The notes below the pieces were generated by a model. That model was not told the DNA's origin and did not search any database. It saw nothing but the letters and a program-made list of their open reading frames with translations. The translations under genes and the position numbers were made by a program. 64,000 nucleotides of DNA, from contig JAJZWM010000001.1 in NCBI GenBank assembly GCA_021846665.1, positions 13,598-77,597 of the forward strand, in the 5' to 3' direction. Numbering within the stretch: position 1 is the stretch's first letter; every line of letters starts with the position of its first letter. This document shows, one piece after another, positions 2,320 through 46,792 of this stretch. This DNA is from Nanobdellota archaeon (GTDB lineage: Archaea; Nanobdellota; Nanobdellia; Parvarchaeales; Parvarchaeaceae).

Positions 2320-2322
2320 AAA

Positions 2323-7117: not shown

Positions 7118-7123
7118 TTTTGC

Positions 7124-9568: not shown

Positions 9569-9587
9569 AAAGAATTATAATTATGTT

Positions 9588-9606: not shown

Positions 9607-9629
9607 GATATTAATTAGTTTTATAAAAA

Positions 9630-26658: not shown

Positions 26659-28068
26659 CTATTCTACTGTATTGCCGACTAGCTTGTCTTTTATAGGTTT
26701 GAATTCATCCCCATTGTCCTGCTGCAGTGAGAAGTAGAACTGGTATATTATCATTACTATAAGAAGTATTCCTATGCCTTCTGTTAATGTATCCAGAAAA
26801 GCTGCAAGAGCTGCGACTAATCCAGTAAGTGCTCCACCTAATATAGCCAAGGGAATTATATACCTCTTGAATATATCCACGAGCACCCTCTCATCTCTTC
26901 TAAAGCCAGGCATAGATAAACCTGATTCCATAAGCTGCTTTACTACAGATCTTGGATCCTGGCCACCCAGATACATCCATACATAAGAGAAGGCGGCAGC
27001 ACCAATAACTAGTATAACTGTGTAAATGATCATAGACTCTATTTCTAGTGCTGTTATTCCAGTAGTTACTGCACTTGTGTAAAGCTGTTGTATTGTCGGT
27101 GGTGAAAGATAAGCCGCTAAACCTCCTGTTGCAACTTCCTGTGTTCCAAATGCTGTTGATTCTGTAGTAAATGTTCCAAGGATATTTATTCCAGCATGAG
27201 ATAATGTCAAACCGAAAAACTGCACACCTGCAACCATTGAAACTATTAATACAATCGGTATTATGCTTGTATAAAACAATGATACTGGCCACCTTATGGA
27301 GTAACCTCTTAATCTTCCAAAAGAAAGAGGAAGCTCAACCTTTATTGATTGAAGCCATATAGCAACTGCAAACAATGCGACTGTGGATATAACTGTTATT
27401 ATTGGAAATACAGCATTCAATGGTATACCAGCAATAAATGCTTCTATTATTGAAGGTATTGCTCCTATGGGGGTTATAAATGGATTAAATGCGGTATTTA
27501 TTAGTTGTAACGATATACCCGCAAGTATGAAAAGACTTATTCCCGAACCTATTCCCCACTTACTTACCACTTCATCCATGAAAAGAAGTATCACACCTGC
27601 TATGAAAAGTTGAATAAACATGACTAATGGAAAGAATATTCCAGGACCTGCCGGTGTAAGTGCTCCGCTAAATACATAAACGCCATTCTCTATAGCTATA
27701 AAAGCAAAGGCGGCAAGCTTCTGTATCCCTTGGAAAGTGACTCTGCCTTCCTTAGTTGCTGTGTCTATATTTATTATCTTTGTTCCTTGAAGCATCTGTA
27801 TTATAATACTAGCACTTACTATTGGCCCTATACCCAAAGAAAGCAATGAACCAAAGTGTGAAGCTATAAGAACCTGAAGTATCTCAAAATTAAGACTGTA
27901 AGATTTGCTTACACCAAATAAAGGTACAAAGGACATTACTATAAAAAGAACAACTATGACAAAGGTCCACTCCATCTTTGTCTTCAGATCCAGTTTCTTT
28001 TCTGGAACTGTTACTGCTGGCAGATTCGAGATGAATTTCTTAACTTTCTCATTCATATACTTCGCCAC
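26659..28068 (-). CDS. secY: Preprotein translocase subunit SecY
   Basis: 469 aa with 10 TM helices. Position after L15 in the spc-like cluster. Characteristic SecY hydrophobicity pattern and conserved segments (GIGPIVSASIIIQ, GGLAAY). Confidence 0.9.
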   Translation of the reverse strand: MAKYMNEKVKKFISNLPAVTVPEKKLDLKTKMEWTFVIVVLFIVMSFVPLFGVSKSYSLNFEILQVLIASHFGSLLSLGIGPIVSASIIIQMLQGTKIINIDTATKEGRVTFQGIQKLAAFAFIAIENGVYVFSGALTPAGPGIFFPLVMFIQLFIAGVILLFMDEVVSKWGIGSGISLFILAGISLQLINTAFNPFITPIGAIPSIIEAFIAGIPLNAVFPIITVISTVALFAVAIWLQSIKVELPLSFGRLRGYSIRWPVSLFYTSIIPIVLIVSMVAGVQFFGLTLSHAGINILGTFTTESTAFGTQEVATGGLAAYLSPPTIQQLYTSAVTTGITALEIESMIIYTVILVIGAAAFSYVWMYLGGQDPRSVVKQLMESGLSMPGFRRDERVLVDIFKRYIIPLAILGGALTGLVAALAAFLDTLTEGIGILLIVMIIYQFYFSLQQDNGDEFKPIKDKLVGNTVE

Positions 28069-28450
28069 CGTTGGCTAATATATCATCCTTAGCCTTTACG
28101 GAGGCCTTTCCATACACAGCCAACTTAAATTTTTCATCCTTAAATTTACCACATATCTTAGAATATCCTAGGTCTCTAAGCCTTATTTCATATCTATCGT
28201 TATCCATCTTTATTTTTTCCTTCTTTTTAAGTGATTCTATTAAGCTACCAACATCTTTTAAATTCAAAGGAACTTTTTTAATACTTGAATAACTATAAGT
28301 GTGGGTATTTGTACGGAAAGAGATCATTTTCTGTTGTCCTCTTTTTCCTCCTCCTGCCTTTCCTACTCCTCCCCTGTTTCCAGCATGTCTAGTTCTTTTG
28401 CCGGATCCTCTTCCAGCAGTTGAACTTCCTCTCAAATGCTTTCTTTTCAT
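28049..28450 (-). CDS. rpl15: Ribosomal protein uL15
   Basis: Gly/Arg-rich N-terminus RGSSTAGRGSGKRTRHAGNRGGVGKAGGGKRG. Operon position. Confidence 0.85.
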   Translation of the reverse strand: MKRKHLRGSSTAGRGSGKRTRHAGNRGGVGKAGGGKRGQQKMISFRTNTHTYSYSSIKKVPLNLKDVGSLIESLKKKEKIKMDNDRYEIRLRDLGYSKICGKFKDEKFKLAVYGKASVKAKDDILANGGEVYE

Positions 28451-28896
28451 ATCATCCTATCCAAAAGTTCATTTATTTTATCTCCTCTATAGCCAAATAC
28501 ACCTTTTAAGGAGAATGGGGTTTTTTTGCCCTTTCTCTCAAAGCCTTTTATAGGCGGATGTAAATTAAATATATTCTTGATACCTAAATCTGCTACTTTT
28601 TTCTCTCCTTTTATAAAAGACTCTGAAAATGAATTTATTTCAGGTTCCTTCATCTCTATTCTTTTCTTATTACTTATCCTTCCTCTCTTAAGTAATAATT
28701 TAGATAATGTCTTAGCATCTATCTCACCATAGGTTACAACGCTATCTATTATATTTAGTATCCCTTTATTTTGAGGGGAATTATCAACTAGTACGCACGA
28801 GTAAAGTTTTTTTAGTCCAAATACCTTTAAGCCGTCCTTTATGGCCTTGTTCTTTCCTATATCTGTTCTTATCTTTATTACTGCAAGTTTTTCCAT
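28447..28896 (-). CDS. rpl30: Ribosomal protein uL30
   Basis: 149 aa. LAVIKIRTDIGKNKAIKDGLKVFGLKKLYSCVLV pattern and operon position. Confidence 0.8.
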   Translation of the reverse strand: MEKLAVIKIRTDIGKNKAIKDGLKVFGLKKLYSCVLVDNSPQNKGILNIIDSVVTYGEIDAKTLSKLLLKRGRISNKKRIEMKEPEINSFSESFIKGEKKVADLGIKNIFNLHPPIKGFERKGKKTPFSLKGVFGYRGDKINELLDRMI

Positions 28897-28897
28897 T

Positions 28898-29644
28898 TTA
28901 TCCTTTTATTCCCAAGTTTTCTTTTTCCTTATCAAAAAACCTATAATAATTAAGAGATTTTAATGCCTCAAAAGTTGCATAGCCTATATTTATTCTTGTA
29001 TTCGTCTGTCCATTTACCTTTGACCATACATCTTTTATCCCAGCAAGTTTCATTATAGTTTTTATATCGTCCATAACGCAAAAACTTATCCCCTTTGGGG
29101 CAGGTAGAAGAGTTACAACTACAGAACCACATTTTCCAGAAACTTTGAATGGAATTGAATGACTACCATGACATGCACACTCCCAGCTACCACATCCTCT
29201 CAGTATACTTATTATATTTAATTTAGCGTTCTTAAGTGCTTTCTCCTTTGCAATTACGGATTCCAGGCCTCTTCCTTTTCCTATACCTATATGACCATTT
29301 CCATCACCAATTACAGCCATTGCAGAAAAATGCTGTCTCTTAGCCTTTGCAGTTACCTTCTGTGTATTCCTTATTACCCTTCTTTTTCCTCCTCCGAGCT
29401 TACCTTTTGACTGACCAACATAAAGAAAATCTACCTGAAGATTTGGTATAAGGAAATCAACTATCTGTGGCTCAAGAATCTTAAGGTGCTTTTCCAGTAT
29501 TTCATCTATATCCTTTATCTCTCCGCTCTTAACCGCTTTCCCAAGTTCAGTTTTAAATTCGTAAGTCCTTCCAGCATAAACGGGATTTGCAGCTGCCTCT
29601 CTGCTCTCAACAACTTTTTTATCTACAACTTCTTCATTTTCCAT
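28898..29644 (-). CDS. rps5: Ribosomal protein uS5
   Basis: dsRBD and S5 domain motifs (VIGDGNGHIGIGKGRGLESVIAKEKA). Operon position. Confidence 0.85.
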   Translation of the reverse strand: MENEEVVDKKVVESREAAANPVYAGRTYEFKTELGKAVKSGEIKDIDEILEKHLKILEPQIVDFLIPNLQVDFLYVGQSKGKLGGGKRRVIRNTQKVTAKAKRQHFSAMAVIGDGNGHIGIGKGRGLESVIAKEKALKNAKLNIISILRGCGSWECACHGSHSIPFKVSGKCGSVVVTLLPAPKGISFCVMDDIKTIMKLAGIKDVWSKVNGQTNTRINIGYATFEALKSLNYYRFFDKEKENLGIKG

Positions 29645-30143
29645 TCTTTATATTCTCCAGTGTTTTATTAAAGTCTTCCCTTATATTTTTAATTTTATCT
29701 CCTACTGCTGAGAATTGATTTCCTTTTCTGTTATCGTAGTAACTGGATATATGTTCTCCATATAAACGTTTCTCATCGATTTTTATATCATCTGAATGAA
29801 CATCTACGCCAAAATCATGTAGGCCTTTCATTACGTAGTATATGAAACTATTTTCTTTTAAAGTTCTATTTCCTTTATCTAGTATAGCTTCCTTTACGTT
29901 TGATTTTTTACCTAATAAATAACCTATTAGATATGAAGCAGATGAATTTTTACTGCTAAAGTTCCAGCCAAACTTCTTTAAATCATTTCCTCTTACCATC
30001 GCTATCGTTTTATCCCCTTCTTCACTGTATTGTACAATATGCGCTATCACTGCTTTATCTGTCTTTCTGACTACTAATCTTGGTATGCCAGACTTTAGCA
30101 ATTCAAGCCTTTTTCTGTAATTAGTTCTTTTTGTATTTTTCAT
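29634..30143 (-). CDS. rpl18: Ribosomal protein uL18
   Basis: 169 aa. RLVVRKTDKAVIAHIV...GNDLKKFGW pattern. Operon position. Confidence 0.8.
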   Translation of the reverse strand: MKNTKRTNYRKRLELLKSGIPRLVVRKTDKAVIAHIVQYSEEGDKTIAMVRGNDLKKFGWNFSSKNSSASYLIGYLLGKKSNVKEAILDKGNRTLKENSFIYYVMKGLHDFGVDVHSDDIKIDEKRLYGEHISSYYDNRKGNQFSAVGDKIKNIREDFNKTLENIKNGK

Positions 30144-30589
30144 TGTCCTACCTTCTTCATTCCTTCAATATAATTTCTCATGTGGTTAACACTGTGAAAT
30201 GAATTTCCTTTTATCTTTTTATATAGCTGTCTGAATTCTTTCTTGTCTATCTTTCCCTGTTTCCTCTGCTTGAAAAGTTCATTTCTAAGCGCCCTTACTT
30301 TATCTATCCATTCAAAGTCCATTCTTGCAGATTTTTCTCCTTTCCTACTACCTATCCCTTTTCTATGTCCTCTTCTCTTCTTTTCATGGAGAACTCTGGC
30401 CCTTGCTCTGGACTGACCTACGAGTTCCTTTTTCTTTATTGTTCCCTTTGAGATAAGACTCTCTATATCTGCTCTTGTTATAGCTTCCTTTATGTCCTTA
30501 AACTTTGATGGATCTAGCCAAACTCTAGCTTCTCCAACATTTAAAACATTACTGGCTATCCTTCTTTGCGTTTTCAATTTCCCTTGCAT
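30140..30589 (-). CDS. rpl19e: Ribosomal protein eL19
   Basis: LKTQRRIASNVLNVGEARVWLDP N-terminus typical of L19e. Operon position. Confidence 0.85.
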   Translation of the reverse strand: MQGKLKTQRRIASNVLNVGEARVWLDPSKFKDIKEAITRADIESLISKGTIKKKELVGQSRARARVLHEKKRRGHRKGIGSRKGEKSARMDFEWIDKVRALRNELFKQRKQGKIDKKEFRQLYKKIKGNSFHSVNHMRNYIEGMKKVGQ

Positions 30590-30899
30590 AATTTATCACC
30601 ATTATCTTCTTTTCCTTGCATTTATTATATATTAATTTTCTCTTTAATGCACCTACTGATTTTCCGATTACAGCAATGTTTGTATCGTTTAATTTTTCAA
30701 CGTCTTTTAAGTTGAATATCCTTACTGGTATTTTACCTGCAATTCTGCCTCTCTTTGAAACAGGAGACATAAAACCTTTTGAAGGCATTTTTTTATGTCC
30801 TTTCTTACCTACTTTTGTCTTATTCTTCTTACCTGTTGGTTTTCTCCATGAATTACCAACTCTTTTAAGTTTTCTAGCATCGTGTTTTGTAAATTCCAT
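30549..30899 (-). CDS. rpl32e: Ribosomal protein eL32
   Basis: 116 aa, basic. KRVGNSWRKPTGKKNKTKVGKKGHKKMPSKGF pattern. Operon position. Confidence 0.8.
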   Translation of the reverse strand: MEFTKHDARKLKRVGNSWRKPTGKKNKTKVGKKGHKKMPSKGFMSPVSKRGRIAGKIPVRIFNLKDVEKLNDTNIAVIGKSVGALKRKLIYNKCKEKKIMVINYAREIENAKKDSQ

Positions 30900-30901
30900 A
30901 A

Positions 30902-31423
30902 TTAAGGTTTCTTAGTTATAAATACCCCATCCTTAAATACCCTTCTGTCTTTATTTTTTATCTGTATTTTAGATTCTATTGTGCCTGCTAATTGTCCTAC
31001 TTTATATTTGTCTATTCCAGATATTATTATTTTGTTTCCTTTTACCTCTACTTTTAAATCTTCTGGTACCTGTATCTCTCTTGGTTTTCTTTCTCCTACA
31101 AAATTTTCTACTGATATTTTATTTCCATTGAGCTTTAAAGAAGCTGGAAAGTGCATGTAAACTAACTCTAATTCTGCTGTATATCTTTCAGTTACTCCTT
31201 TTATCATATTTCTCACATTTGCTGCCAATGTTCCTGCAATGGATTTCTGAAACTTATTATCTTTTTCTGCTTCAATGAAAAGGGTATTGTCTTTCTTCTC
31301 TACTTTCAAAAAAGGATGTACTATTTCGGTATGCAATTCTCCTTCCTTTCCTTTAACAGTTATATTACTTCCGTTAAGTTCCAGATTTACTCCTGTTAAA
31401 TCAACCTTAAATTTAGTAGACAT
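30902..31423 (-). CDS. rpl6: Ribosomal protein uL6
   Basis: 173 aa. Two-repeat L6 fold pattern (VKGKEGELHTEIVHPFLKVEKKDN...). Operon position. Confidence 0.8.
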   Translation of the reverse strand: MSTKFKVDLTGVNLELNGSNITVKGKEGELHTEIVHPFLKVEKKDNTLFIEAEKDNKFQKSIAGTLAANVRNMIKGVTERYTAELELVYMHFPASLKLNGNKISVENFVGERKPREIQVPEDLKVEVKGNKIIISGIDKYKVGQLAGTIESKIQIKNKDRRVFKDGVFITKKP

Positions 31424-31799
31424 AAGCTAAAAGGCTACCTCCTATCATTAATCGTTTCGCTTCTTCGTTTGTGATTACTCCTTTATTTGTAGACAAAAGT
31501 ATTAAGCCAAAGCCCAAAGCAGGTAAGTACCTTTTCTCATATTTTACTATATCTCCTGCTTTTATTGGTATTCTAGGCCTTATAGCCTTACATTCATTTA
31601 AGTGCTCATTTATATCTATTTTTACGAATCCGCCTCTTACATCATTTATTATCTCGTAATTGTCAATGTATCCTCCTTTTTTGATAAGTTCCAAGAGATT
31701 AATTAAAAGCTTGCTATTTGGACTCACAACGCAGGATTTCTTACCTACTTTTCTTGCAACGTTTATAGTATTGAATATAGTTGAAAGTGAATCTACCAT
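31413..31799 (-). CDS. rps8: Ribosomal protein uS8
   Basis: 128 aa. LSTIFNTINVARKVGKKSCVV N-terminus. Operon position. Confidence 0.85.
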   Translation of the reverse strand: MVDSLSTIFNTINVARKVGKKSCVVSPNSKLLINLLELIKKGGYIDNYEIINDVRGGFVKIDINEHLNECKAIRPRIPIKAGDIVKYEKRYLPALGFGLILLSTNKGVITNEEAKRLMIGGSLLAYVY

Positions 31800-31801
31800 A
31801 A

Positions 31802-32038
31802 TTATGCCTCCTTTCCGTACTTTTTAAATCCAAGATCGGGAGCGATCTCTCTAAAGCACTGTCTACAGTAGTTAAGGCCATGTATCTTTATGTGGCCCTC
31901 TGCCCTATTACAACGTATACATAAATGTGCTCTTCTGTCATGCGGCTGCATCTTATGTTTGTTGAATTTTATAAATCTGGCTCTCTTTGCTGGATTGGTT
32001 GAATGTACCTTTAATATTTTTTCGAATTGAGTTTCCAT
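31802..32038 (-). CDS. rps14: Ribosomal protein uS14 (zinc-binding type); true start possibly at the internal Met
   Basis: C-terminal [35 protein letters not shown] zinc-ribbon motif. The 78-aa ORF is longer than a typical archaeal S14 (~50-60 aa). Confidence 0.8.
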
Positions 32039-32044
32039 GATTCT

Positions 32045-32596
32045 TTAAATAACCTTCACATTATATTTATTCTTTATGAATTCTACTGCCTCATCTTTTT
32101 TAATTAGATGTGACTTACCTATATTAGATTTATTCCTTCTTTTAGTTATACCAAATCCTCTTCTAGATAATGTAACATTTACTGAAAGTCCAACTATACC
32201 TATCGTATAATCATATTTAGCCCCAGGTATATGTATATATTCTTTTATTCCAAAAGATAAATTACCCTTTTCATCGAAATTAGAGTCCTTTATAGAGTTC
32301 TCAACCGCAGTAAACATTCTTTTTAATACTTCCTCAGCAGCCTGTTTTCTTAAAGTTGTCTTTACTCCTATCTCAAGCCCAGGCCTTAATCCCCATTCAG
32401 GTATTCTTTTTTTAGTCTCTGTCTTTACTACCTTCGAACCTGAAATCTGCTCTAACAAACTCCTTATTTTTTCAAGTCTTTCTCCAGGCTCTCCTACTCC
32501 TATGTTCAACGTAACCTTTTCAACAAAGATATCTCTCATTTTATTTTCCATATTATAAAACCATACAAGATTTAATTGATGAAACGAAGTCACCAT
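32045..32596 (-). CDS. rpl5: Ribosomal protein uL5 (probable true start at the internal MENKMRD.., ~32551)
   Basis: VKTTLRKQAAEEVLKRMF...FGIKEYIHIPGAKYD pattern. Operon position between S4e and S14. Confidence 0.85.
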   Translation of the reverse strand: MVTSFHQLNLVWFYNMENKMRDIFVEKVTLNIGVGEPGERLEKIRSLLEQISGSKVVKTETKKRIPEWGLRPGLEIGVKTTLRKQAAEEVLKRMFTAVENSIKDSNFDEKGNLSFGIKEYIHIPGAKYDYTIGIVGLSVNVTLSRRGFGITKRRNKSNIGKSHLIKKDEAVEFIKNKYNVKVI

Positions 32597-33215
32597 CTTT
32601 TCCAGAAACTAAAACAAAGTAACCATTAATCTCCTTTATTTTTCCTGTTCTTCCCGCATTTTTACCGTTAAAAATTATGACTTCTTTCCCCTGTTCAAAA
32701 GGTATTCTGTCTTTTATCTTACCACTAGAGAGGTCCAATACTATAGAGTCATTTATTTCTATGCCTCCCTTTTCAGCTACGATGTTCCTTGCATCACTCG
32801 TAAAAAGTATGTCCTTTGAGCCTTTTCCTTTGTACTTTGACATTATCTTTACTTTTTTACTGTCTACCTTTTCATCCTGCTTTACTGCAATTATTTTTCC
32901 TTTTTCATTTAGCCATACAAGAAAATAATCATCTTTGATGTTTACAATATCGGAGAAACCTACAGCATATTTCTCTTCCTTTATTTTTTTACCGTCTACC
33001 GAAACAAACCCTGCTTTTATCAAGTACCTAGCTTCTCTTGCATTTCCAGCTATATTTAGCACATCTCTTAAAAAGCCCAATATAGATACACCCTGTCTGG
33101 AACTATGTTTTCCTGGAAGTGGCTTTACATAATACTTGTATTTTTTCCTAGGTATAACTAAAGAATTGGTAACTGCACTTCTCTTAAGATGTTTCGATTC
33201 ACCGTGTCTTGCCAT
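32553..33215 (-). CDS. rps4e: Ribosomal protein eS4
   Basis: 220 aa. ARHGESKHLKRSAV N-terminus. S4 and KOW-like segments. Operon position. Confidence 0.85.
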   Translation of the reverse strand: MARHGESKHLKRSAVTNSLVIPRKKYKYYVKPLPGKHSSRQGVSILGFLRDVLNIAGNAREARYLIKAGFVSVDGKKIKEEKYAVGFSDIVNIKDDYFLVWLNEKGKIIAVKQDEKVDSKKVKIMSKYKGKGSKDILFTSDARNIVAEKGGIEINDSIVLDLSSGKIKDRIPFEQGKEVIIFNGKNAGRTGKIKEINGYFVLVSGKDGDFVSSIKSCMVL

Positions 33216-33591
33216 AAGACTCTATTTTCTCTAACCTCCTTGCATCGGACAGATTAAGATCTGTTATTATTAAAGCCGATGGTCTAATTTTAAAAGGAAC
33301 CTTATTTCCTTTCTTCGTTATGTTCTTAGCTGAATCAATACTTACTTTTAACTGTTTCGTATAGACTTTATCTACCTTTCCTTCCTTTCCCTTAAACTTT
33401 CCTCTTGTAATTAATACAGTATCTCCTTTTTTCAACAGTACATTCCTTGTTTTATATTTTGCTCTTAACTCCTTTGATAAATGAACAGAAATCATCTTTC
33501 TTTTTATATGCAAAGGAGCATTTGTTCTGTATTTTCTCTGCTTCTTAGGAGAAGTACTCGAAACCCAATGTCTGCTAAAATTATTTTTCAT
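33199..33591 (-). CDS. rpl24: Ribosomal protein uL24
   Basis: KOW motif KKGDTVLITRGKFKGKEGKVDKV. Operon position. Confidence 0.85.
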   Translation of the reverse strand: MKNNFSRHWVSSTSPKKQRKYRTNAPLHIKRKMISVHLSKELRAKYKTRNVLLKKGDTVLITRGKFKGKEGKVDKVYTKQLKVSIDSAKNITKKGNKVPFKIRPSALIITDLNLSDARRLEKIESYGKTR

Positions 33592-34019
33592 ACAATCTTC
33601 GAAGCTATCTTAGTTATATTAGGGAAACGTATAGAAATCTCCCTAGCTATCGGCCCTCTTATAATAGTGCCCTGAGGTTCATATTTGTCTATATCTTTAA
33701 CTATTGCACATGCATTATCCTCAAACGAAACTCTCGTACCATCATGCCTTCTATATTCTTTTCTTTGTCTTACGACTACTGCTGGAAACTTCTTATGAAC
33801 TGTATCAGGTGAACCTTTCTTTACAACAACAAATATTGTATCTCCGATTCCGCACTTTGGCTGCCTGTCTTTTACACCGTGATAATTCCTTATGTTTACG
33901 ACCTTTACTATCTTTGCTCCGGAATTATCAGCTACCATTATCCAACTTCCCACATTTATAGATTTAGAGATCTTTGCTCTTATTGCCTTTAAACCGGCTC
34001 CCTTCCTTCCTGTTCCCAT
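33588..34019 (-). CDS. rpl14: Ribosomal protein uL14
   Basis: ADNSGAKIVKVVNI...GDTIFVVVKKG pattern. Operon position. Confidence 0.9.
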   Translation of the reverse strand: MGTGRKGAGLKAIRAKISKSINVGSWIMVADNSGAKIVKVVNIRNYHGVKDRQPKCGIGDTIFVVVKKGSPDTVHKKFPAVVVRQRKEYRRHDGTRVSFEDNACAIVKDIDKYEPQGTIIRGPIAREISIRFPNITKIASKIV

Positions 34020-34020
34020 A

Positions 34021-34335
34021 TCACTCTAATTTCCTCACAACTACAAACCTTTTCCATCTACTTATTGGTCTTGTTTCATATATCACTACTTTATCATTTA
34101 ATTTTGCTGATATGCACTCTGGATTATGAGCAAGCACTCTACTTCTTATCTTTACATATCTATCGTATTTTCCTAACCTTCTAAAAACCGTCCAGCTTAC
34201 TGTAACGGTTTTATCAGCTTTAGCAGAAGTAACTATTCCTTCAAACCTTCTACCATGAACCCTTAACTGTCCATGATACGGGCAATGAATATCATTGCAG
34301 CTATTCTCTGGCTTCTTCAAATCTTCATAAAGCAT
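34021..34335 (-). CDS. rps17: Ribosomal protein uS17
   Basis: GIVTSAKADKTVTVSWTVFRRLGKYDRYVKIRSRVLAHNPE pattern. Operon position. Confidence 0.85.
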   Translation of the reverse strand: MLYEDLKKPENSCNDIHCPYHGQLRVHGRRFEGIVTSAKADKTVTVSWTVFRRLGKYDRYVKIRSRVLAHNPECISAKLNDKVVIYETRPISRWKRFVVVRKLE

Positions 34336-34534
34336 ATTCCCATGGCCTCATATTTATATCATTTCCATTCACTTTTATTTCTTTTTTATTCATATGTACT
34401 ATAAATCTGTTTCCATCCTTTATAACTCTTCTTATACCACTTACTGTTTCAAGTAGCAAAGTATTTTTCGTTTCATCTATTACTTTACCTTCCAAATTTT
34501 TCCCTATTACTTTCAATTTAAATCCTATCAGCAT
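34325..34534 (-). CDS. rnp1: RNase P protein component 1 (Rpp29/Pop4 family), unusually short (69 aa)
   Basis: GKVIDETKNTLLLETVSGIRRVIKDGNRFIVHMNKKEIKVNGNDINMRPWEYAL matches the Sm-like core of archaeal Rpp29 (G-K-I-I-D-E-T-x-N-T-L..). Canonical position upstream of S17. Confidence 0.65.
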   Translation of the reverse strand: MLIGFKLKVIGKNLEGKVIDETKNTLLLETVSGIRRVIKDGNRFIVHMNKKEIKVNGNDINMRPWEYAL

Positions 34535-34585
34535 TAGCTATCTTAAAATATTTAAATTTAAAAATGTTTTCAAACAGCAAATAAA

Positions 34586-34849
34586 TCAAATTAAACCTAG
34601 TTGTGTGGCAACATCCATGGCCTGGAATTCTGGCTTTAACTTTACTACTGCTACCTTTCTGGAATCCATCCTATTTATTATGTTTATGCTTTCAACCTTT
34701 GCTTTAAGCAAAGCTTCTACTTCTTTCTTTATTAATATCTTGTTTGAATCTTTTGATACTATAAATGAAAGCTTGTTTTCAGTCTGCATTAATCTTGTAG
34801 ATTTTTCACCACTTAAAACACTTATTAGATATTTTAAATTTTCTTCCAT
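34586..34849 (-). CDS. rpl23: Ribosomal protein uL23
   Basis: 87 aa. EKSTRLMQTENKLSFIVSKDSNKILIKKEVEALLKAKVESINIIN...KVAVVKLKPEFQAMDVATQLGLI matches uL23. Follows L4. Confidence 0.8.
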   Translation of the reverse strand: MEENLKYLISVLSGEKSTRLMQTENKLSFIVSKDSNKILIKKEVEALLKAKVESINIINRMDSRKVAVVKLKPEFQAMDVATQLGLI

Positions 34850-34851
34850 AT

Positions 34852-35637
34852 TTACCTGAGATTTTCAATTGCCCCTTTTGTCCATACAATCAGTCTTCCT
34901 GGCCTGCCTGCCTGTGAAACATCAATCATTGATAACGCCGATGGATTTGTAACCTTTATATTTAGATTTGAAAATGCACTTGGAGCCTTCTCATTTTCTT
35001 TCACAACAAGAACTATGCCTAATCTTTTTCTGTATTTTCTTCCTCTTAGTTTTCCCTTCCCACTCCTTATAGTTTTCTTCATTATTCTATCAAGCTCTGC
35101 ACTTAGACCTATAGAAGAGAGCAGATTTTTTGCTTCTTTTGTCTTTTTCACTGTTATTGCAGAATCATCTACAACTATTGGTAGTTCCTTTATTCCATCA
35201 ATAGAATGAAACATTGAAACCTGTTTTATATCGGCAGATGCTGCTATGCCCATTTTAATTGCAAGTTTTCTTTCCTTCTTATTTATTTCCTTTACCAGTC
35301 TTTTATCAGCTTGTGGAGGATGTGCTTCTCTTCCACCGACAGTATTTGGAGCAACTGCACCTACATAACTAAAATTAGTACCTACCCTAGAAAGAGTTTT
35401 TCTTGGTGTTCTATCTAAACCTCTTCCATAGCTTGTTTTAAAAGCTCTTCTTCTTTTTGTAAGCTCCGCTACATTTCTTTTACCTGCCATCGGATCTGTA
35501 TATTTTAGCTGGAACTTTTTAGACTGTTCTGCAAGAAATGCTTTTTTAAATGTAGTATAGTTGAACTCTGTGCTGAATACTTCTGGCAATTTAATCTCTC
35601 CACTTTCCTTACCGTCAGACGAAAATACTTTTACCAT
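34852..35637 (-). CDS. rpl4: Ribosomal protein uL4
   Basis: 261 aa. AGKRNVAELTKRRRAFKTSYGRGLDRTPRK...PPQADKRL pattern. Operon position. Confidence 0.85.
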   Translation of the reverse strand: MVKVFSSDGKESGEIKLPEVFSTEFNYTTFKKAFLAEQSKKFQLKYTDPMAGKRNVAELTKRRRAFKTSYGRGLDRTPRKTLSRVGTNFSYVGAVAPNTVGGREAHPPQADKRLVKEINKKERKLAIKMGIAASADIKQVSMFHSIDGIKELPIVVDDSAITVKKTKEAKNLLSSIGLSAELDRIMKKTIRSGKGKLRGRKYRKRLGIVLVVKENEKAPSAFSNLNIKVTNPSALSMIDVSQAGRPGRLIVWTKGAIENLR

Positions 35638-35638
35638 A

Positions 35639-36589
35639 TCACTTCAATAATGTTATTTTTACCGGTTCAGCCTTTCTTGTAGGTCTTATTGCTTTTCTCA
35701 TTATAATTAGTCTGCTAGCACTTCCTGGAACTGAACCCTTTAAGACTATAGCATTGCCCTTTAAGTTGCCATAGTTTTTATATCCACTAGGTATATTTAC
35801 TTCCTGGGGATCTTTTACAACCTTGAATACAAATTTATTATATTCAACCCTAGAATTAAAACCTAATCTACCATGCTGTGGGACTGTATACTGAACCTTT
35901 GCCATTGTTTCTGCACCCAGGTTACCAGCTTTTCTTCTAGATTTACTAGCATGCACAGGATATATCTTTACACCGTAACGCTTTACGGATCCCTGAAAAC
36001 CTTTACCTTTTGTTATTGCACCTACATCAACAAAAGTACCATCTTTTATGACTGAAGAAACTTCTATTGATTTACTTAAAAAATTCTTTGCGGTCTCTAA
36101 TTTTTCATCGAAATTTCCGCCTACTGCCAATTCGAATATCTCTGGTTTTTTCTTTAGGCCTATAGACCATGGCTGTGTAGCTACTAGTAAACGTAGATCA
36201 TTGGCTTTTCCTTTAAAATCATCTACACTTTTATTATTTTCTTTAAATTTCACCTTTCTCTGAACGTATTTGTTTATATTTGTTCCCCAGCTTTCTCCAA
36301 CAGTTATTCCATTATTGTAGAATCTTACTGCACAGACTAACAAAGGTGGACATTCAATTACAGTTGCATTTGTCATTACTTCCATTTTAAATGTAGGTGA
36401 ACTTTTGTTAGAATCAATATAAACGAGCTGTATCATTCCAGCTTTATAGCCGGCAAATCCCCCTATTTCCCCTTTTTCTAGATCCTTAAAATTGTTAACT
36501 GTATTATAAGGTCGTTTACTCTTTCTTATAGGGTAATACTGCAAACTTCCTCTTCTAGGAGTACTCTTCTTCGTTATCTGATGTCCCAT
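35639..36589 (-). CDS. rpl3: Ribosomal protein uL3
   Basis: 316 aa. FAGYKAGMIQLV...VTKGKGFQGSVKRYGV motifs. First gene of the cluster. Confidence 0.9.
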   Translation of the reverse strand: MGHQITKKSTPRRGSLQYYPIRKSKRPYNTVNNFKDLEKGEIGGFAGYKAGMIQLVYIDSNKSSPTFKMEVMTNATVIECPPLLVCAVRFYNNGITVGESWGTNINKYVQRKVKFKENNKSVDDFKGKANDLRLLVATQPWSIGLKKKPEIFELAVGGNFDEKLETAKNFLSKSIEVSSVIKDGTFVDVGAITKGKGFQGSVKRYGVKIYPVHASKSRRKAGNLGAETMAKVQYTVPQHGRLGFNSRVEYNKFVFKVVKDPQEVNIPSGYKNYGNLKGNAIVLKGSVPGSASRLIIMRKAIRPTRKAEPVKITLLK

Positions 36590-36728
36590 AATTTAATTGC
36601 AATTGTTTTATTTACTGATATAGATTTTTTACGTTTAAATAGATTAACATTTAAGCTTATATTTCATTTAACATATAAATTCTTTCAATTTCACCATTAT
36701 ATAGGTTTTTTTATTAAAAATCTTATAT

Positions 36729-38069
36729 TTAAAAACTTATTATCCTTATGTTCTCTGTTGAATTTTCACTCAATGATAGACCTGAAATAACTATAGCTTT
36801 TTTTATGCCGTACTCCTTAGCTATCTTAAGAAGGTTTCCCTCTGCTTTTTCCAGGCTTTCCACAGAGATACCTTTAACATTTTTGCTGAAGGATAACTTA
36901 GAGAAAGCCATTTTGTTGTTTGTAATAGCAAAGATATCCAATTGGAGGTGGTGTCTTGAAAGCCTAAATGCACTTCTACCAGAAGGAGTAAATGTTATTA
37001 TCTTGTTTATCTTAGTGTTTATGACTAGGTCTATCACTGAATTTAATATTGCGTCATGTATATCCTCTATCTTATATCTTTTTATAATACCAGAATAATG
37101 ATATTTTTCTATTATTCTTTTTAGCATTGATACAGCCTTTAAAGGATAAACCCCTATTGCTGTTTCTTCTGAAAGCATAACAGCATCTGTTCCTTCGTCT
37201 ATAGCAGTGAAAACGTCATCCGCCTCTGCTCTGGTTGGCATTACGTTATTTGTCATAGATTCAAGCATTTGCGTAGCCGTTATAACAGGCTTGCTATTTT
37301 CATTACATAGTGCTAAAAGTCTCTTTTGAACTTCCGGCAAATCCGCAATATCTATATTTAAACCTAGATCCCCTCTAGCAATCATTATAACATCGGCTAC
37401 TCTTACTATCTCTTTAAAATTTTTTACTGCTTCTATCCTTTCTATCTTTGCTATCAAAACGCTTTTTTCTCCTGCTATTTTCCTAGCATTCTCTATATCT
37501 TTTGCACTTGATATAAAAGACAAAGCAAAGGTATTTATACCCAAGCTTAGACCGAATTTTATTCCTTCTTCATCTTTCTTTGTTGGATATCTACCGGGAT
37601 AGGAAATTCCCTTAAAATTTATACTCTGCTCATTAAGTAAAACGCCATTATTTAAGGCCTTTGCAACTAAAAGACCCATCTCCTTTCTCATTGGCTTAAA
37701 TTCTATCTTGCCATCCGATAAAAGGAGCTTGCTTTTCATATTTATTCTTTTTATTATTTCGTCTGATACTTGTATCTGCCCATTCTTACCAAAGGTGTAT
37801 TCCGTTCCTTCCTTTATCTCTATTTTATCCCCATGAACTTTTCCTGTTCTAAGTTTAGGCCCTGGTAAATCAAAAAGCATTAGAACGTTCCTTTTTGTTT
37901 CTTCTTCTACTTTCCTAACGTTCGCAACTACTCTTGTAAAATACTCATTATCACCATGCGATAAATTAAATCTGAATACGTCTACTCCTTTAAGAACCAT
38001 CTTTTTAAGCATTTCGTAACTGTCACATGCTGGACCAATTGTTACTACTGTTTTAATCCTGCTTACCAT
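36729..38069 (-). CDS. pyk: Pyruvate kinase
   Basis: 446 aa. N-terminal KTVVTIGPACDSYEMLKKMVLKGVDVFRFNLSHG. MIARGDLG motif. Barrel and C-terminal domain arrangement. Confidence 0.85.
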   Translation of the reverse strand: MVSRIKTVVTIGPACDSYEMLKKMVLKGVDVFRFNLSHGDNEYFTRVVANVRKVEEETKRNVLMLFDLPGPKLRTGKVHGDKIEIKEGTEYTFGKNGQIQVSDEIIKRINMKSKLLLSDGKIEFKPMRKEMGLLVAKALNNGVLLNEQSINFKGISYPGRYPTKKDEEGIKFGLSLGINTFALSFISSAKDIENARKIAGEKSVLIAKIERIEAVKNFKEIVRVADVIMIARGDLGLNIDIADLPEVQKRLLALCNENSKPVITATQMLESMTNNVMPTRAEADDVFTAIDEGTDAVMLSEETAIGVYPLKAVSMLKRIIEKYHYSGIIKRYKIEDIHDAILNSVIDLVINTKINKIITFTPSGRSAFRLSRHHLQLDIFAITNNKMAFSKLSFSKNVKGISVESLEKAEGNLLKIAKEYGIKKAIVISGLSLSENSTENIRIISF

Positions 38070-38100: not shown

Positions 38101-41100
38101 TTAATTTACCTGTCCATTCAATGGGCCGATACTTTGAACGGGCATGATTCCATTAGGAGGATATGCTCTTGCTATAAGCCACCTAACATAGTTATAATCG
38201 TAACCCCCCCCTGTTCCGGCTGCAACCATTAAAGTAGGATAATTAAAAGCGGAAGGTATAGAGCCACTCATCGAAATTGGGATGTTTATATCAGAGAAAT
38301 TAGAAATAGAAGAGGATTTATTAATTACCCCTGCTTCTACAGTTGTACTACTACTTACTATTAATTTTTCAGTATAAGTTTGTGGAGTTATTGAAGGTAA
38401 GTTATTAACTGTAGAGATAATTTTATTATTCACGTTGTCCAATATTGCCGGTAAATATTTACCTGAACAATTCATCCCAACAGGTTCTACCATTAACATA
38501 ACTGAATCAGCAGATGCAACATTTCCACCACCGCATGTAACAACCGGTGCTCCGGTAACTGATGAAGTATCACCAAATAAGGAAAGAATCTCTCCATCGG
38601 TTGGACTGTCTCCGCCATAGAAATTCCAAGAGTATTCAACAATTACCGGCTCTTCTGGTAATTGATTTGGAGGTAGTATATGAGTCCCCTCACTTGGTGT
38701 ATCATTTGTCATCTCTATACCATTAGGAGTAGCTACAGGAGTAAAGCTACCACCTGTTACATAAGGTGTCCAACCATCAAAACCAGAAGTATTAAGGAAA
38801 TCTCCATAGGATAAAAATACATTTTGTCCATCATCATATTCCCCATATATTGATGATAATTGAGGAGATTCACCATCATTAGTTTTATTAAACAGACTTA
38901 TATTTGGTAACGCAAAACCCATGAATGCAACATAAGATTCTCTAGGTTGTAGATTACCTAACTTCAGCCAATAATTTGTTGAAGTACTAGCAGACGAAAC
39001 GCCATTAAATGTAATATTGTTTATTGATAAAGTATTATGACCATTCTGCTGATTCCCATTTCCAGATAGAAGATACCATGCAATTAATCCAGAGCTATTT
39101 AAAGGTGATCCTGCAACGCCTTCATCATAAAGAAGAGCTACCTTTGAAGGTGAAAATACCTGATTATAAAACTGAACATTTGATATATACCCCTTGAAAT
39201 AGAAATTACTGTTATTTGTATTTGCCCAATTATTAGTATACCCTTCACCGATAGTCCAGTAAGTTGGAGAACAAGTTTGTGGTGTACCAGAATAAGTTGC
39301 TATTTCTATTCCATTTAAGTACAAAATCTGTTGTGAGGATGTTTGTACAATTGTGACAGAATTCCACTTTCCATTAGCTACAAAATGATTCGTATTAAAC
39401 GGCTGAGAACCTACCCAATCACCACCTGCCAAATCTCCGTTTTTATTTACATATATAATTGGGCTATAACAGCCTCCAGAAGAAACTTGCTTTAAATCAC
39501 CATTCCATAGAACAACACCATCACTGGTTGTCTTAAACCAAGCACTTATAGTAAATGTACCTGCTGTACCAAAAGGGTAATTCTCTGGTAGATTTGCATA
39601 GCTATTTGCGCCATTGAAATAAGCCAGGTCCCCTGAACTTAACCATGAAGGAATAACACTTCCACTTGGTGAGAAAAATTCAACGTTACTAAGGGTGTTA
39701 TTTTCAAAGATATTATAATCAAAAGAATTTATTGATAAGTTATCCTGGAATACATTAGGAGTTGCAGATGATTGAAGATTTGTTATAAATACCGGTACAA
39801 ATTCCTTCACATTTTTAGGTATATTAGCTACTGCCTCCCAGTAGGTTTGATTTGCCAGATTTGATTGATTAGAAAAAACAGTTATGTTATACAAACCTGC
39901 AGACAAAGGCTTTTGATAAGATAGACTTGCAGAACCTAAAGGGACTGCTACAGAACCGTTTATCATTAAACCTATATGACTAGCATGTATACCAAAAGCC
40001 GTTATATTCGTTATATCTCCAGAAGCTATACCATTATTTCCGTCTTTAACTCCATTTACAAAAACAGTAATCTGCGGTTCTATAGGACCAAAAGTTACAG
40101 AAGGCATAACTCCATTTGGAGGAGCGGAGGGAGAGTAATAATCTATTGCATTATTAGACCACATTGCCGTATAAGCGCCACCGCCATCTTCATAATAATC
40201 TAATTCTATTCTCTGTGTTCCAATTGAAGAGATAGTACCTAAATAAGTTGTAAAGCCTTCGGTATGCCATTGACTTACAAGATTATTTGGATTTGATGTT
40301 CCGCCTAACCAATAAGCTCCATTTCCTCCTGCAGGAGATGTTGAATAACCTAATGCTATACCATCGTCAGAACCTACGTAGAATGTTGTAGATGAATTAA
40401 CCTCAGCCCAGCCTATTGCCTTTATTATCCATGAATTTCCTGTATTTGATACGGGGGGATTTGGATAAGCTGCCCCGCCACTGTATCCTTCCTGATAATT
40501 CATTATTACATTACTTTCAGTTGTTCCATCTACATCTTGTGAACTGCCAATAGGGGAGGTATAAAATGGTTTAGTTGATGAAGACATTGGTGCACATGAA
40601 TTTATTGTAACGCCGTTGTTTAAGGCAGCTGCATACACATTATTCTGGTAACTTCCACTATTACAAGCCCCACTTGGATCGAAGTAAATTTGATACTCTA
40701 AGCCTTTATTCATAACGTTGCCTATATCATCATATTCACCATATGTTGAAGAAAGCTGCGGTGCTTCACCATCATTAACATTGTTAAATAAATTTGTGGA
40801 CTTGGATGCAAAACCCATATAAACTGTTATAGAAGACCTAACAGGTATACCACTGATTTTAAGCCAATAAACTGAACTTGTAGCTGTATTAGAATTTCCA
40901 GATTCTAGCCATGAATTTATAATTGTTCCATTGGGATAAAAGAATTCTACATTCTGTAGGTTAGACGCTTCATACTGCTGATAATTCGCAGAATTAACAA
41001 CTACTTCCTGCTGAAAAGGAGAAGAAGTTGAAATTGATTGATTATTTTTTATAGTCAAAGGAACAAAATTTAAAATACCTTTAGGAATCAGCAGAAGTTG

Positions 41101-41799
41101 TTGCGGAAGAAAACATGATGGGCTTATTATATTAAGAGAGCTAACATATATTTCAGCAACTGAATTTGGAGGGAATTGACCGCCATTACTAGGAGTTATA
41201 CTACCAGAGTAATAACCAGATAAAGTGCTTTCATTCTGCTCTGCCACCATTTTGTTATCATTATATATTATGATAGTAAAATTCACGTCACCAACTAAAT
41301 TACCGTTAGTATCAAGAAAAGAAACGTTATAAAGAATACTTGAAGGATTATAAATATAGGAAGTTGAAATGTAGGATATTGGTAAATCCATAGATATTTG
41401 TGCTTCTGGCCTACCGTTCTCTTTTACAAGTGTTACTCTACCAACGTAAGTTCCAGAACTTACTGGAAGTTCCCCCGTTGTATACAAAGATAATGATTGA
41501 GAGGCTTCTTCTCCCCCAAATGACAAAGATACAGATGTATTACAAATTGAAGAAACCAAATTTAAACCTGGAGAAGAAAAACTGAATTGCTGCGAGGAAC
41601 CAACAGCGCTTTCAGATAATGAATTTACTGCATTTGCTATGCTTTTAGCCGCCAATTGAAGATCTTGTGAAGTACCTGCTGAATTGTAACCTATCTGGTA
41701 GTATATAGCATATGATATAGCTGCACCAAGTATAAATATAGCTATACCCATTACTAACAGATATTCTAAGGAAGACTGGCTTTTTGATCCAATTTGCAT
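38101..41799 (-). CDS. Giant (1232 aa) class III signal-peptide surface protein. Internally duplicated. Two DUF2341-like modules, the second interrupted by a concanavalin A/LamG-like domain
   Basis: N-terminus MQIGSKSQ/SSLEYLLVMGIAIFILGAAISYAIYY (archaeal pilin-like Q-x-x-L-E-Y-L-L motif). Module 1 at ~aa 245-364 (PLTIKNNQSISTSSPFQQ...NVEFFYPNGTIINSWLESG...VYWLKISGIP...VYMGF...DGEAPQLSSTYGEYDD). Module 2 at ~aa 668-995 with an inserted FTISAWFKTTSDGVVLWNG LamG-like segment. Two occurrences of the PPNG-[VI]-MP-x-x-x-x-GP motif (aa ~560 and ~1215). Confidence 0.7.
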   Translation of the reverse strand: MQIGSKSQSSLEYLLVMGIAIFILGAAISYAIYYQIGYNSAGTSQDLQLAAKSIANAVNSLSESAVGSSQQFSFSSPGLNLVSSICNTSVSLSFGGEEASQSLSLYTTGELPVSSGTYVGRVTLVKENGRPEAQISMDLPISYISTSYIYNPSSILYNVSFLDTNGNLVGDVNFTIIIYNDNKMVAEQNESTLSGYYSGSITPSNGGQFPPNSVAEIYVSSLNIISPSCFLPQQLLLIPKGILNFVPLTIKNNQSISTSSPFQQEVVVNSANYQQYEASNLQNVEFFYPNGTIINSWLESGNSNTATSSVYWLKISGIPVRSSITVYMGFASKSTNLFNNVNDGEAPQLSSTYGEYDDIGNVMNKGLEYQIYFDPSGACNSGSYQNNVYAAALNNGVTINSCAPMSSSTKPFYTSPIGSSQDVDGTTESNVIMNYQEGYSGGAAYPNPPVSNTGNSWIIKAIGWAEVNSSTTFYVGSDDGIALGYSTSPAGGNGAYWLGGTSNPNNLVSQWHTEGFTTYLGTISSIGTQRIELDYYEDGGGAYTAMWSNNAIDYYSPSAPPNGVMPSVTFGPIEPQITVFVNGVKDGNNGIASGDITNITAFGIHASHIGLMINGSVAVPLGSASLSYQKPLSAGLYNITVFSNQSNLANQTYWEAVANIPKNVKEFVPVFITNLQSSATPNVFQDNLSINSFDYNIFENNTLSNVEFFSPSGSVIPSWLSSGDLAYFNGANSYANLPENYPFGTAGTFTISAWFKTTSDGVVLWNGDLKQVSSGGCYSPIIYVNKNGDLAGGDWVGSQPFNTNHFVANGKWNSVTIVQTSSQQILYLNGIEIATYSGTPQTCSPTYWTIGEGYTNNWANTNNSNFYFKGYISNVQFYNQVFSPSKVALLYDEGVAGSPLNSSGLIAWYLLSGNGNQQNGHNTLSINNITFNGVSSASTSTNYWLKLGNLQPRESYVAFMGFALPNISLFNKTNDGESPQLSSIYGEYDDGQNVFLSYGDFLNTSGFDGWTPYVTGGSFTPVATPNGIEMTNDTPSEGTHILPPNQLPEEPVIVEYSWNFYGGDSPTDGEILSLFGDTSSVTGAPVVTCGGGNVASADSVMLMVEPVGMNCSGKYLPAILDNVNNKIISTVNNLPSITPQTYTEKLIVSSSTTVEAGVINKSSSISNFSDINIPISMSGSIPSAFNYPTLMVAAGTGGGYDYNYVRWLIARAYPPNGIMPVQSIGPLNGQVN

Positions 41800-42409: not shown

Positions 42410-42411
42410 AG

Positions 42412-46471: not shown

Positions 46472-46792
46472 TTGAATAAAAAGATAAAAATGACAGAAGT
46501 TTGTCCAGTTTGTGGTCTTCCAAAAGACCTTTGTATCTGCGGGACCATTTCGCAGGAAACGCAGAAAATAAAAATTTACACTAAAAAAGTTTCTTTTAAA
46601 AAGATGGTTACTATTATAAGTGGCTTGGATCCAAAAGCCGTTAATATAAAAGATCTAACAAAAGTATTAAAGACAAAGATAGCCTGCGGCGGAACCTTTA
46701 AAGACGGTATTATAGAATTGCAGGGAGAACATGTAGATAAAGTAAAGGATATACTTATAAAACAGGGTTTTCCAGAGACTTCCTTTTCTTAG
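46472..46792 (+). CDS. sui1: Translation initiation factor SUI1 (aSUI1/eIF1); true start possibly at MTEVCP (46490)
   Basis: CPVCGLPKDLCIC...QKIKIYTKKVSFKKMVTIISGLD...KIACGGTFKDGIIELQGEHVDKVKDILIKQGF closely matches archaeal SUI1. Confidence 0.85.
   Translation: MNKKIKMTEVCPVCGLPKDLCICGTISQETQKIKIYTKKVSFKKMVTIISGLDPKAVNIKDLTKVLKTKIACGGTFKDGIIELQGEHVDKVKDILIKQGFPETSFS

Follow-up and report, generated by a model that had tools for sequence, protein, structure and literature searches.

A junction of L23 and Rpp29 in the ribosomal protein supercluster of the Parvarchaeales and a separate L2-S19-L22-S3-L29 operon

Gene order at the junction and its conservation

The stretch of DNA analyzed here, hereafter the window, comprises 64 kb of an archaeal contig (JAJZWM010000001.1, Nanobdellota archaeon) and carries a supercluster of ribosomal protein genes in which the gene for L23 is followed directly by those for the putative RNase P subunit Rpp29 and for S17. 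According to the open reading frame (ORF) list and the sequence, the minus-strand order is uL3, uL4, uL23, a 51-nt spacer, a 69-aa Rpp29 and uS17, and onward to SecY. Gene identities were established by means of Pfam gathering scores, and the features of the locus are as follows.

36729-38069, minus strand: pyruvate kinase (PK), upstream neighbor of L3 (Pfam PK, 290 bits)
35639-36589, minus strand: uL3, first gene of the L3-L4-L23 remnant of an S10-like operon (Pfam Ribosomal_L3, 183.5 bits)
34852-35637, minus strand: uL4 (Pfam Ribosomal_L4, 83.4 bits)
34586-34849, minus strand: uL23, last gene ahead of the breakpoint (Pfam Ribosomal_L23, 46.3 bits)
34535-34585, minus strand: 51-nt spacer, the breakpoint and the usual slot of L2-S19-L22-S3-L29-SUI1
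34325-34534, minus strand: Rpp29, 69 aa, first gene of the spc-like unit (Pfam RNase_P-MRP_p29, 40.7 bits)
34021-34335, minus strand: uS17 (Pfam Ribosomal_S17, 70.5 bits)
28049-34019, minus strand: remainder of the spc-like unit, that is, L14, L24, S4e, L5, S14, S8, L6, L32e, L19e, L18, S5, L30 and L15 (Pfam and the annotation of identical contigs)
26659-28068, minus strand: SecY (Pfam SecY, 178.6 bits)
25900-26619, minus strand: EMC3/TMCO1-like (DUF106-type) membrane protein, directly after SecY (Pfam EMC3_TMCO1, 43.1 bits)

The L3, L4 and L23 genes stand co-directionally at the head of the cluster, all of them on the minus strand (Pfam), and the L2-S19-L22-S3-L29 genes and SUI1 are not contiguous between L23 and Rpp29/S17, where the 51-nt spacer is found instead. 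A preliminary description of this DNA had reported that L23 is followed directly by Rpp29-S17 at a distance of some 51 bp, and both the distance and the coordinates prove exact when the ORF list, the sequence and the Pfam assignments are compared. The spc part of the cluster, from Rpp29 and S17 to L15 and SecY, is complete and in canonical order, with L15 assigned by a weak match that falls under the Pfam cut-off (19.7 bits). The 69-aa ORF is predicted to encode a minimal Rpp29/Pop4 subunit of RNase P: it matches the p29 Sm-like barrel (PF01868) above the gathering score (40.7 bits versus a cut-off of 27), with positions 25-80 of the 84 in the profile aligned. The outgroup proteins are longer (90-99 aa). 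The start codon is kept in all the relatives compared, and the gene overlaps the start of uS17 by 11 nt. RNase P RNA was also looked for within positions 33900-36800. At the head of the cluster, a TATA-like box (cTATTTAAAc) lies some 43-51 nt upstream of uL3, in a region that is conserved among relatives, and the order PK-L3-L4-L23 is present in most Parvarchaeales loci. The start of uL5 (32045-32596, minus strand) is ambiguous: the longest ORF comprises 183 aa and overlaps S4e by 44 nt, and in other assemblies a 164-aa product is called from an internal ATG.

The named homologs of the L4 protein belong to 'Candidatus Parvarchaeota archaeon' and to Rehaiarchaeum, and the S17 protein is 97-98% identical to that of the 'Candidatus Parvarchaeota archaeon FK_Sedi' metagenome-assembled genomes (MAGs), which come from acid mine drainage sediment, and 83% identical to that of ARMAN-5. 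In a neighbor-joining (NJ) tree built from S17, L14, L24 and S4e the Parvarchaeales are monophyletic, with Rehaiarchaeum (L043) and a second locus (L042) together forming the sister group to the remainder, and their nearest neighbors are Woesearchaeota-type loci, all of which present the standard gene order. On these comparisons the window organism, a tiny archaeon of acid mine habitats, appears to be Parvarchaeum-like and to group with the named Parvarchaeales (DPANN; Nanoarchaeota, renamed Nanobdellota). The earlier suggestion that fragmentation of this kind fits reduced or fast-evolving archaea is in keeping with the placement of the organism in a fast-evolving DPANN order, the Parvarchaeales.

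The exact uL23 protein of the window occurs on at least 24 contigs (39 index blocks, drawn from several ENA assemblies and from four NCBI MAGs), and the L23-then-Rpp29 junction is found in all six places listed among them. MAGs that contain the window are GCA_027369955.1, GCA_027319785.1, GCA_027369995.1 and GCA_027369975.1. The identical junction is present in relatives at 81%, 57% and 47% L4 identity, and the same arrangement is observed in about 35 loci of other Parvarchaeales produced by other assemblers, including the Sanger-era ARMAN-5 scaffold of 2010; the spacer sequence is itself conserved among relatives. When an S17 alignment was used to search a single genome of each GTDB species, 66 loci were retrieved, about 30 of them from the Parvarchaeales (ARMAN-5, Candidatus Acidifodinimicrobium mancum and Candidatus Rehaiarchaeum fermentans among others). 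According to local annotation, L2, S19, L22 and S3 do not occur within 10 kb of S17 in any Parvarchaeales locus, and every non-Parvarchaeales locus examined contains an uninterrupted ...L22-S3-(L29-SUI1-Rpp29)-S17 series. The comparison with close relatives that the preliminary description had called for thus returns the same junction across the Parvarchaeales and in none of the outgroups, and its proposal that the arrangement is a useful lineage marker holds for all the Parvarchaeales loci. Two further loci of the comparison, filed as 'Eggerthellaceae bacterium' (L065) and 'Bacteroides salyersiae' (L066), contain a complete archaeal S10-spc cluster with a layout nearly identical to that of Candidatus Methanarcanum hacksteinii (L063), and probably represent bin contamination in gut MAGs.

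Whereabouts of the displaced genes

Six-frame tblastn searches of the whole 64 kb with outgroup L2, S19, L22 and S3 queries returned no match at E<=10, the L23 positive control being recovered in the same search at 1e-12, and congeneric Parvarchaeum queries for L2, S19, L22, S3 and L29 likewise gave no match at E<=1 across the window. The five families are also absent from the Pfam scans of those window ORFs of at least 90 aa that were judged to be genes, and between the genes tRNAs, Nop10 and short ORFs due to chance are found, with no candidate for L29. The earlier statement that no trace of the five genes is visible in alternative frames agrees with the six-frame searches of the window. Its count of five genes gone from the slot stands for those five but falls short of the total, since six genes have left, SUI1 among them.

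The five ribosomal genes exist intact, as an independent operon, in Parvarchaeum genomes, as the preliminary description had anticipated in placing them elsewhere. Searching the representatives of clusters at 50% identity, followed by cluster look-ups, led to an L2 representative (P0293) whose cluster includes the ribosomal protein L2 of ARMAN-4 (EEZ93183.1) and several 'Candidatus Parvarchaeum sp.' proteins. One member of this cluster (P0575) is encoded on 21 contigs, and all eight of the places listed for it lack L23, L4 and L3 upstream of L2. Where the left flank is present, it consists of SMC, KsgA (minus strand), a CPxCG zinc-finger gene (minus strand) and a 217-aa gene (minus strand), followed by a 104-nt gap; the operon itself comprises L2-S19-L22-S3, a short L29 and a 127-aa membrane protein (orf127), and is followed by a convergent 288-aa gene and by nuoJKLMN-like genes. 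The Parvarchaeum L29 has 57 aa and matches PF00831 above the Pfam cut-off (27.6 bits), and about 80 nt of its gene (12266-12439, plus strand, in locus L090) are shared with the 3' end of S3; the ORF reported there by gene callers has 47 aa and is devoid of annotation. One of the P0575 contigs derives from ENA sample ERZ27237492, which also contains a contig (L005) with the exact uL23 protein of the window and the same gene order.

Searching JGI metagenomes for P0575 homologs contributed seven further contigs with a Parvarchaeales-type L2 (60-80% identical), besides an eighth (L100, 70% identity) that is counted in the locus range L098-L105, and these contigs present a stand-alone L2-S19-L22(-S3) series wherever flanks are available. 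On the other hand, the JGI matches in which L2 is 36-41% identical and which retain flanks are all arranged as L3-L4-L23-L2. In every lineage compared, L2 is preceded by TATA-like boxes at a distance of 27-45 nt. An outgroup L2 query (AH-315-M20) had returned Woesearchaeota-like sequences at 67% identity or more as the best 120 of 6259 matches, and neither amino-acid composition, nor predicted identity (43-47%), nor a mirror-tree profile singled out a Parvarchaeales L2 among the roughly 60 full-length archaeal L2 clusters at 50% identity. Four other candidates for the Parvarchaeales L2 (P0244, P0413, P0281 and P0392) turned out to belong to other DPANN lineages, three of them with the standard order and one (L089) with a different gap.

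The sixth displaced gene is present in the window, where it was located by tblastn with an outgroup SUI1.

46472-46792, plus strand: SUI1 (aIF1; Pfam SUI1, 77 bits)

It stands alone between the arginyl-tRNA synthetase (44540-46309, minus strand) and methionyl-tRNA synthetase (46789-48240, minus strand) genes, 12 kb from the junction. Its ORF starts at a TTG, and the true start probably lies about six codons into it, given that the homologs have 100 aa. In the outgroups SUI1 is located between L29 and Rpp29, which is also its position in the canonical archaeal cluster (PMC10833476). In GCA_025920305.1 (L086), SUI1 lies directly upstream of, and co-directional with, the gene for the small subunit of the D-family DNA polymerase (PolD), two tmk genes, a further gene (x), PK, L3, L4 and L23; L29 is not attached to SUI1 in this genome, in which a ferredoxin gene and a 109-aa ORF precede it.

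Beyond the supercluster, the EF-1alpha gene (51181-52452, minus strand) is isolated, with a topoisomerase I gene on the other strand after it, no S10 downstream and no EF-2, S7 or S12 upstream; the str-type cluster is hence also broken in this genome. No adk gene is found between SecY and the EMC3-like gene or among the window ORFs scanned. The preliminary description had read the missing adk together with the split as operon fragmentation, and the SecY-EMC3 succession without adk, the displaced SUI1 and the EF-1alpha gene without S10 all bear this out.

Two explanations that would do away with any relocation can be set against these results. A collapsed or deleted segment at 34535-34585 might have hidden about 3.5 kb of sequence, an idea that draws on the general caution due to a metagenome-type assembly and on the assembly of one relative (GCA_025920465.1, L012), in which a scaffold gap duplicates this very junction. 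Nevertheless, the identical junction recurs among contigs from separate samples and assemblers and in the loci of other species, the Sanger-era scaffold included, the spacer sequence is conserved, and the relocated operon is flanked by unrelated genes rather than by L23 or Rpp29. Misassembly is therefore excluded, the recurrent junction and the located operon refuting it for practical purposes and leaving it a negligible probability. The five genes might instead have been lost or have decayed to pseudogenes in a reduced genome, or the junction might conceal them in another frame; all that speaks for this is that DPANN genomes are typically small. The L2, S19, L22, S3 and L29 proteins are universal and essential, the 51-nt spacer is too short to contain five genes, no six-frame similarity was detected across the 64 kb, and all five genes exist intact in the genus, including in ARMAN-4. 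The free-standing intact operon and the empty six-frame searches refute this explanation, which we regard as extremely improbable.

Several other features of the window can be mentioned. The tandem thymidylate kinase (tmk) genes (201 and 202 aa; 41804-43020, minus strand) stand beside the gene for the PolD small subunit (43022-44458), and the same trio is found ahead of PK-L3 in the distant relative L086. The two subunits of this polymerase, DP2 (large; 59300-62731, minus strand) and DP1 (small; 43022-44458, minus strand), are encoded 15 kb apart and not adjacently. Two proteins of about 1200 aa (38101-41799 and 52758-56165, both minus strand) have archaeal pilin-like N-termini (QSSLEYL and QAALDYL, respectively), and both contain a LamG domain and a DUF2341-like repeated module; the first protein is strain-variable, being missing between tmk and PK in L001. 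Finally, positions 1-9568 (minus strand) hold five co-directional ORFs with hydrophobic N-termini (one open-ended of more than 774 aa, followed by 1141, 213, 268 and 814 aa), which may constitute a cell-surface or pilus-like gene cluster; a Pfam scan of the four complete ORFs of this run gave no match.

The spacer and its putative promoter

The distance between L23 and Rpp29 ranges from 47 to 132 nt in the crown Parvarchaeales. It all but disappears in the deepest lineages: a single nucleotide separates the two genes in L042, and in Rehaiarchaeum the stop of L23 and the start of Rpp29 share 4 nt (ATGA). In one assembly of this group (L012, JAPDLV010000003.1) an N-run gap at 6050-6280 gives a second copy of the L23 end and of the Rpp29 start, and in the gap-free sister assembly (L043) the two genes truly overlap by 4 nt.

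When the 28 distinct sequences found upstream of Rpp29 at 39 loci are aligned at its ATG, they yield the consensus AaAACaTTTTTAAA, in which AAC[A/G]TTTTTAAA occupies positions -34 to -23. In the window, this motif can be resolved into two putative elements, the B recognition element (BRE) and the TATA box, numbered from the A of the Rpp29 ATG.

34565-34570, minus strand: putative BRE, AAAACA, at -36 to -31
34557-34564, minus strand: putative TATA box, TTTTTAAA, at -30 to -23

The box TTTTTAAA lies exactly at -30 to -23 in 24 of the 28 distinct sequences, the remaining four having it displaced by 1-2 nt. The TATA positions carry 1.5-2.0 bits of information and the BRE positions 0.5-2.0 bits, compared with 0.1-0.4 bits at most positions farther upstream, and the stretch from -18 to -1 is fairly conserved. 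The motif is kept in genomes where Rpp29 no longer adjoins L23 (L030, L038, L039 and L041) and also in those where genes have been inserted between the two (L028 and L029). The insert of L029, located exactly at the L23/Rpp29 junction, encodes a 382-aa pilin-like LamG protein that is a smaller relative of the proteins of about 1200 aa described above.

If transcription starts at the ATG, -36 to -31 and -30 to -23 are the canonical positions of the archaeal BRE and TATA box, respectively, and BRE/TATA promoters of this kind drive leaderless mRNAs in Sulfolobus, Haloferax and Methanocaldococcus. Such a promoter has its A/T-rich TATA box of 8 bp centered some 26-27 nt ahead of the first transcribed base, with the BRE immediately before the box. 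The geometry of the spacer motif appears to match that of such a promoter for a leaderless transcript, with which it shares an 8-bp A/T box at -30 to -23 and a purine-rich element at -36 to -31; it differs in that the putative promoter lies inside what elsewhere is a continuous operon. Other first-in-operon genes of the window present TATA-like boxes at -27 to -32, and the leaderless-type spacing is the norm in this DNA. Given its conserved promoter-like motif, the 51-nt spacer would not be neutral filler, and in those genomes where L23 is no longer upstream or genes have been inserted the motif would have to provide for transcription. The exact 12-mer of the spacer occurs once in the window, and the idea that AACRTTTTTAAA is a general strong-promoter motif was rejected, since at one mismatch its occurrence is not above chance. 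An explanation of spacer conservation by RNA structure was also discarded (z = -0.34, no Rfam match). The stretch from the L23 stop to the TATA box shows no clear oligo-T terminator, and a scan for sigma-70 promoters and intrinsic terminators, models that are not applicable to archaea, returned nothing.

Proposed history of the split and comparison with known clusters

The best overall explanation of the observed gene order, of its distribution across the phylogeny, of the relocated operon and of the motif geometry, which we consider probable, is an ancestral removal of the middle block with joining of its flanks, relocation of the operon and, in the crown group, a promoter at the joint. The L2-S19-L22-S3-L29-SUI1 block would have left the middle of the S10-spc supercluster in the ancestor of the Parvarchaeales, whereupon the flanks PK-L3-L4-L23 and Rpp29-S17-...-L15-SecY would have been joined. 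The five ribosomal genes would persist as a free-standing operon at another locus, with a TATA-like upstream region of their own, and SUI1 would have come to lie upstream of L3, at a distance of a few kb. Where L23 and Rpp29 abut or overlap, as they do in the deepest branches, the two genes are presumably co-transcribed; in the crown, including the window, a spacer of about 50 nt would bear a BRE/TATA promoter that makes the A of the Rpp29 ATG the first transcribed base, so that the mRNA is leaderless. Expression would then be divided among three or more units of the supercluster: L3-L4-L23, Rpp29...SecY-EMC3 and L2...L29.

Several points weigh against this history. Promoter activity is deduced here from sequence, and as no clear oligo-T terminator is seen, some read-through from the L3 promoter is likely and may reach Rpp29. 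The L2 operon described here comes from congeners of the window organism: its GC content (37.6%, versus 33.1% for the window) points to a congener of the L016/L018 type, not to the same species. In addition, we infer both the direction of change and the mechanism of the rearrangement, and a single NJ tree does not settle the polarity of the spacer and promoter, that is, whether they were gained in the crown or lost in Rehaiarchaeum and L042.

Two alternatives bear on how the joint arose and what it does. The first dispenses with a promoter altogether and envisages a plain deletion-fusion, with L3...SecY as one operon and the motif serving, for example, as an operator for translation, as a site of processing or as a signal for pausing or termination. 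Co-transcription clearly works in the earliest branches, where L23 and Rpp29 overlap (ATGA) or lie 1 nt apart, no convincing terminator follows L23, and the fair conservation of -18 to -1 could mean a functional 5' leader. Nonetheless, this proposal does not sit well with a motif placed exactly at the canonical BRE/TATA positions and with the geometry of the window's other first-in-operon genes, with its persistence unchanged where L23 is no longer upstream or inserts intervene, or with the lack of both RNA structure and Rfam matches; we deem it improbable. The second concerns the rearrangement itself, which might have been an interchange of adjacent blocks, PolD-small-tmk-tmk-PK-L3-L4-L23 being swapped with L2...SUI1, for instance by tandem duplication and reciprocal loss, and a later, separate rearrangement parting L2-L29 from SUI1. 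A single swap of this sort would explain both the abutment of L23 with Rpp29 and the position of SUI1, which in GCA_025920305.1 immediately precedes the co-directional PolD-small-...-L23 series and in the window is found in the same neighborhood, although inverted. Against it, no genome examined has L29 beside SUI1 upstream, the place being taken in L086 by the ferredoxin gene and the 109-aa ORF, and the gene upstream of L3 varies among outgroups, so that the ancestral left flank is not defined. We consider such an interchange rather unlikely, and it would in any case refine, without contradicting, the history of ancestral block removal.

Within that history of block removal and rejoining, a stepwise fission of the operon can be tentatively proposed, as a possibility that we hold with some reserve. 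The internal block would have been removed with seamless fusion of the flanks, as witnessed by the Rehaiarchaeum and L042 lineages; a spacer of about 50 nt with a de novo BRE/TATA promoter would then have arisen at the fusion point in the crown; and the two halves would subsequently have been free to separate, as in L030, the L038/L039/L041 clade and GCA_025920305.1, or to accept inserts, as in L028 and L029. If this is true, promoter birth came before, and enabled, the physical break-up of an essential operon. The Parvarchaeales would offer a small natural series (abutting genes, a spacer with a putative promoter, unlinked halves) in which to study how an essential operon with stoichiometrically balanced products can undergo fission and still remain functional. 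From a practical standpoint, the L23/Rpp29 adjacency combined with the free-standing L2-S19-L22-S3-L29 operon constitutes an unambiguous gene-order synapomorphy for the Parvarchaeales, whose placement in sequence trees is troubled by long branches. Any Parvarchaeales contig will yield only part of the single-scaffold sets of 16 syntenic ribosomal proteins, and the rpS3 marker will be separated from most other ribosomal markers by lying on another contig, with consequences for binning and for estimates of abundance.

The canonical archaeal order, L3-L4-L23-L2-S19-L22-S3-L29-SUI1-Rpp29-S17-L14-...-L15-SecY, has been described, for instance, in DPANN archaeon GW2011_AR10 (PMC10833476), and we also find it in Woesearchaeota-type loci (L013, L045-L047, L053, L080, L083 and L088). 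Each surviving Parvarchaeales block retains the genes, internal order and orientation of this supercluster, but the cluster of the window lacks six consecutive middle genes, from L2 to SUI1, with the flanks joined; L2-L29 form a separate operon in Parvarchaeum, and SUI1 is solitary in the window. Splits are nevertheless documented elsewhere: the L3-L4-L23-L2 section stands apart from the remainder in M. jannaschii, the cluster is divided into three segments in Heimdallarchaeote bin6, and ARMAN-2 is among the archaea with a documented S10-spc split (PMC10833476). In our own comparison, the retrieved stretch begins at L22 or S19 in Nitrososphaeria, Bathyarchaeota, Geothermarchaeota and Asgard loci. 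The preliminary description had attributed the standard order to nearly all archaea; this stands for the L22-S3-...-S17 stretch of the outgroups, but as a generalization it goes too far, several TACK and Asgard loci, M. jannaschii and the Heimdallarchaeote being split. No report of the present split in the Parvarchaeota was found in the open-access text searched, a coverage that is perhaps incomplete.

Dispersed ribosomal protein genes are a feature of Nanoarchaeum equitans, which resembles the Parvarchaeales in its reduced, fast-evolving DPANN genome and eroded operons, such as the EF-1alpha gene without S10 in the window. The Parvarchaeales, however, retain blocks of three, five and about 18 genes plus SecY, a partial fragmentation that stops short of the mostly solitary ribosomal protein genes of a Nanoarchaeum-type dispersal. 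A second fast-evolving lineage, represented by a DPANN contig (L089, JGI Ga0370355_1000518), also presents an internal gap in this cluster, its order at 5657-10240 being L3-L4-L23-(77 aa)-L2-S19-L22-(40 aa)-S17, yet there the missing genes are S3-L29-SUI1-Rpp29 and L2 remains beside L23; the ribosomal genes of this contig are interspersed with many tiny ORFs. Hence, cluster splits are already known in archaea, and the present case is of modest novelty, entailing neither a new principle nor a new molecular mechanism. The splits of M. jannaschii, of Heimdallarchaeote bin6 and of the TACK and Asgard loci likewise break inside the S10-like part and leave the spc part intact, but they are simple breaks into separated pieces, whereas in the Parvarchaeales an internal block has been removed and the outer pieces are adjacent, with different breakpoints (L23|L2 and SUI1|Rpp29) and a unique L23|Rpp29 adjacency. 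What sets the Parvarchaeales apart is thus that a block was excised from within and the flanks rejoined, that this arrangement is conserved throughout the order, and that the scar bears a putative promoter footprint.

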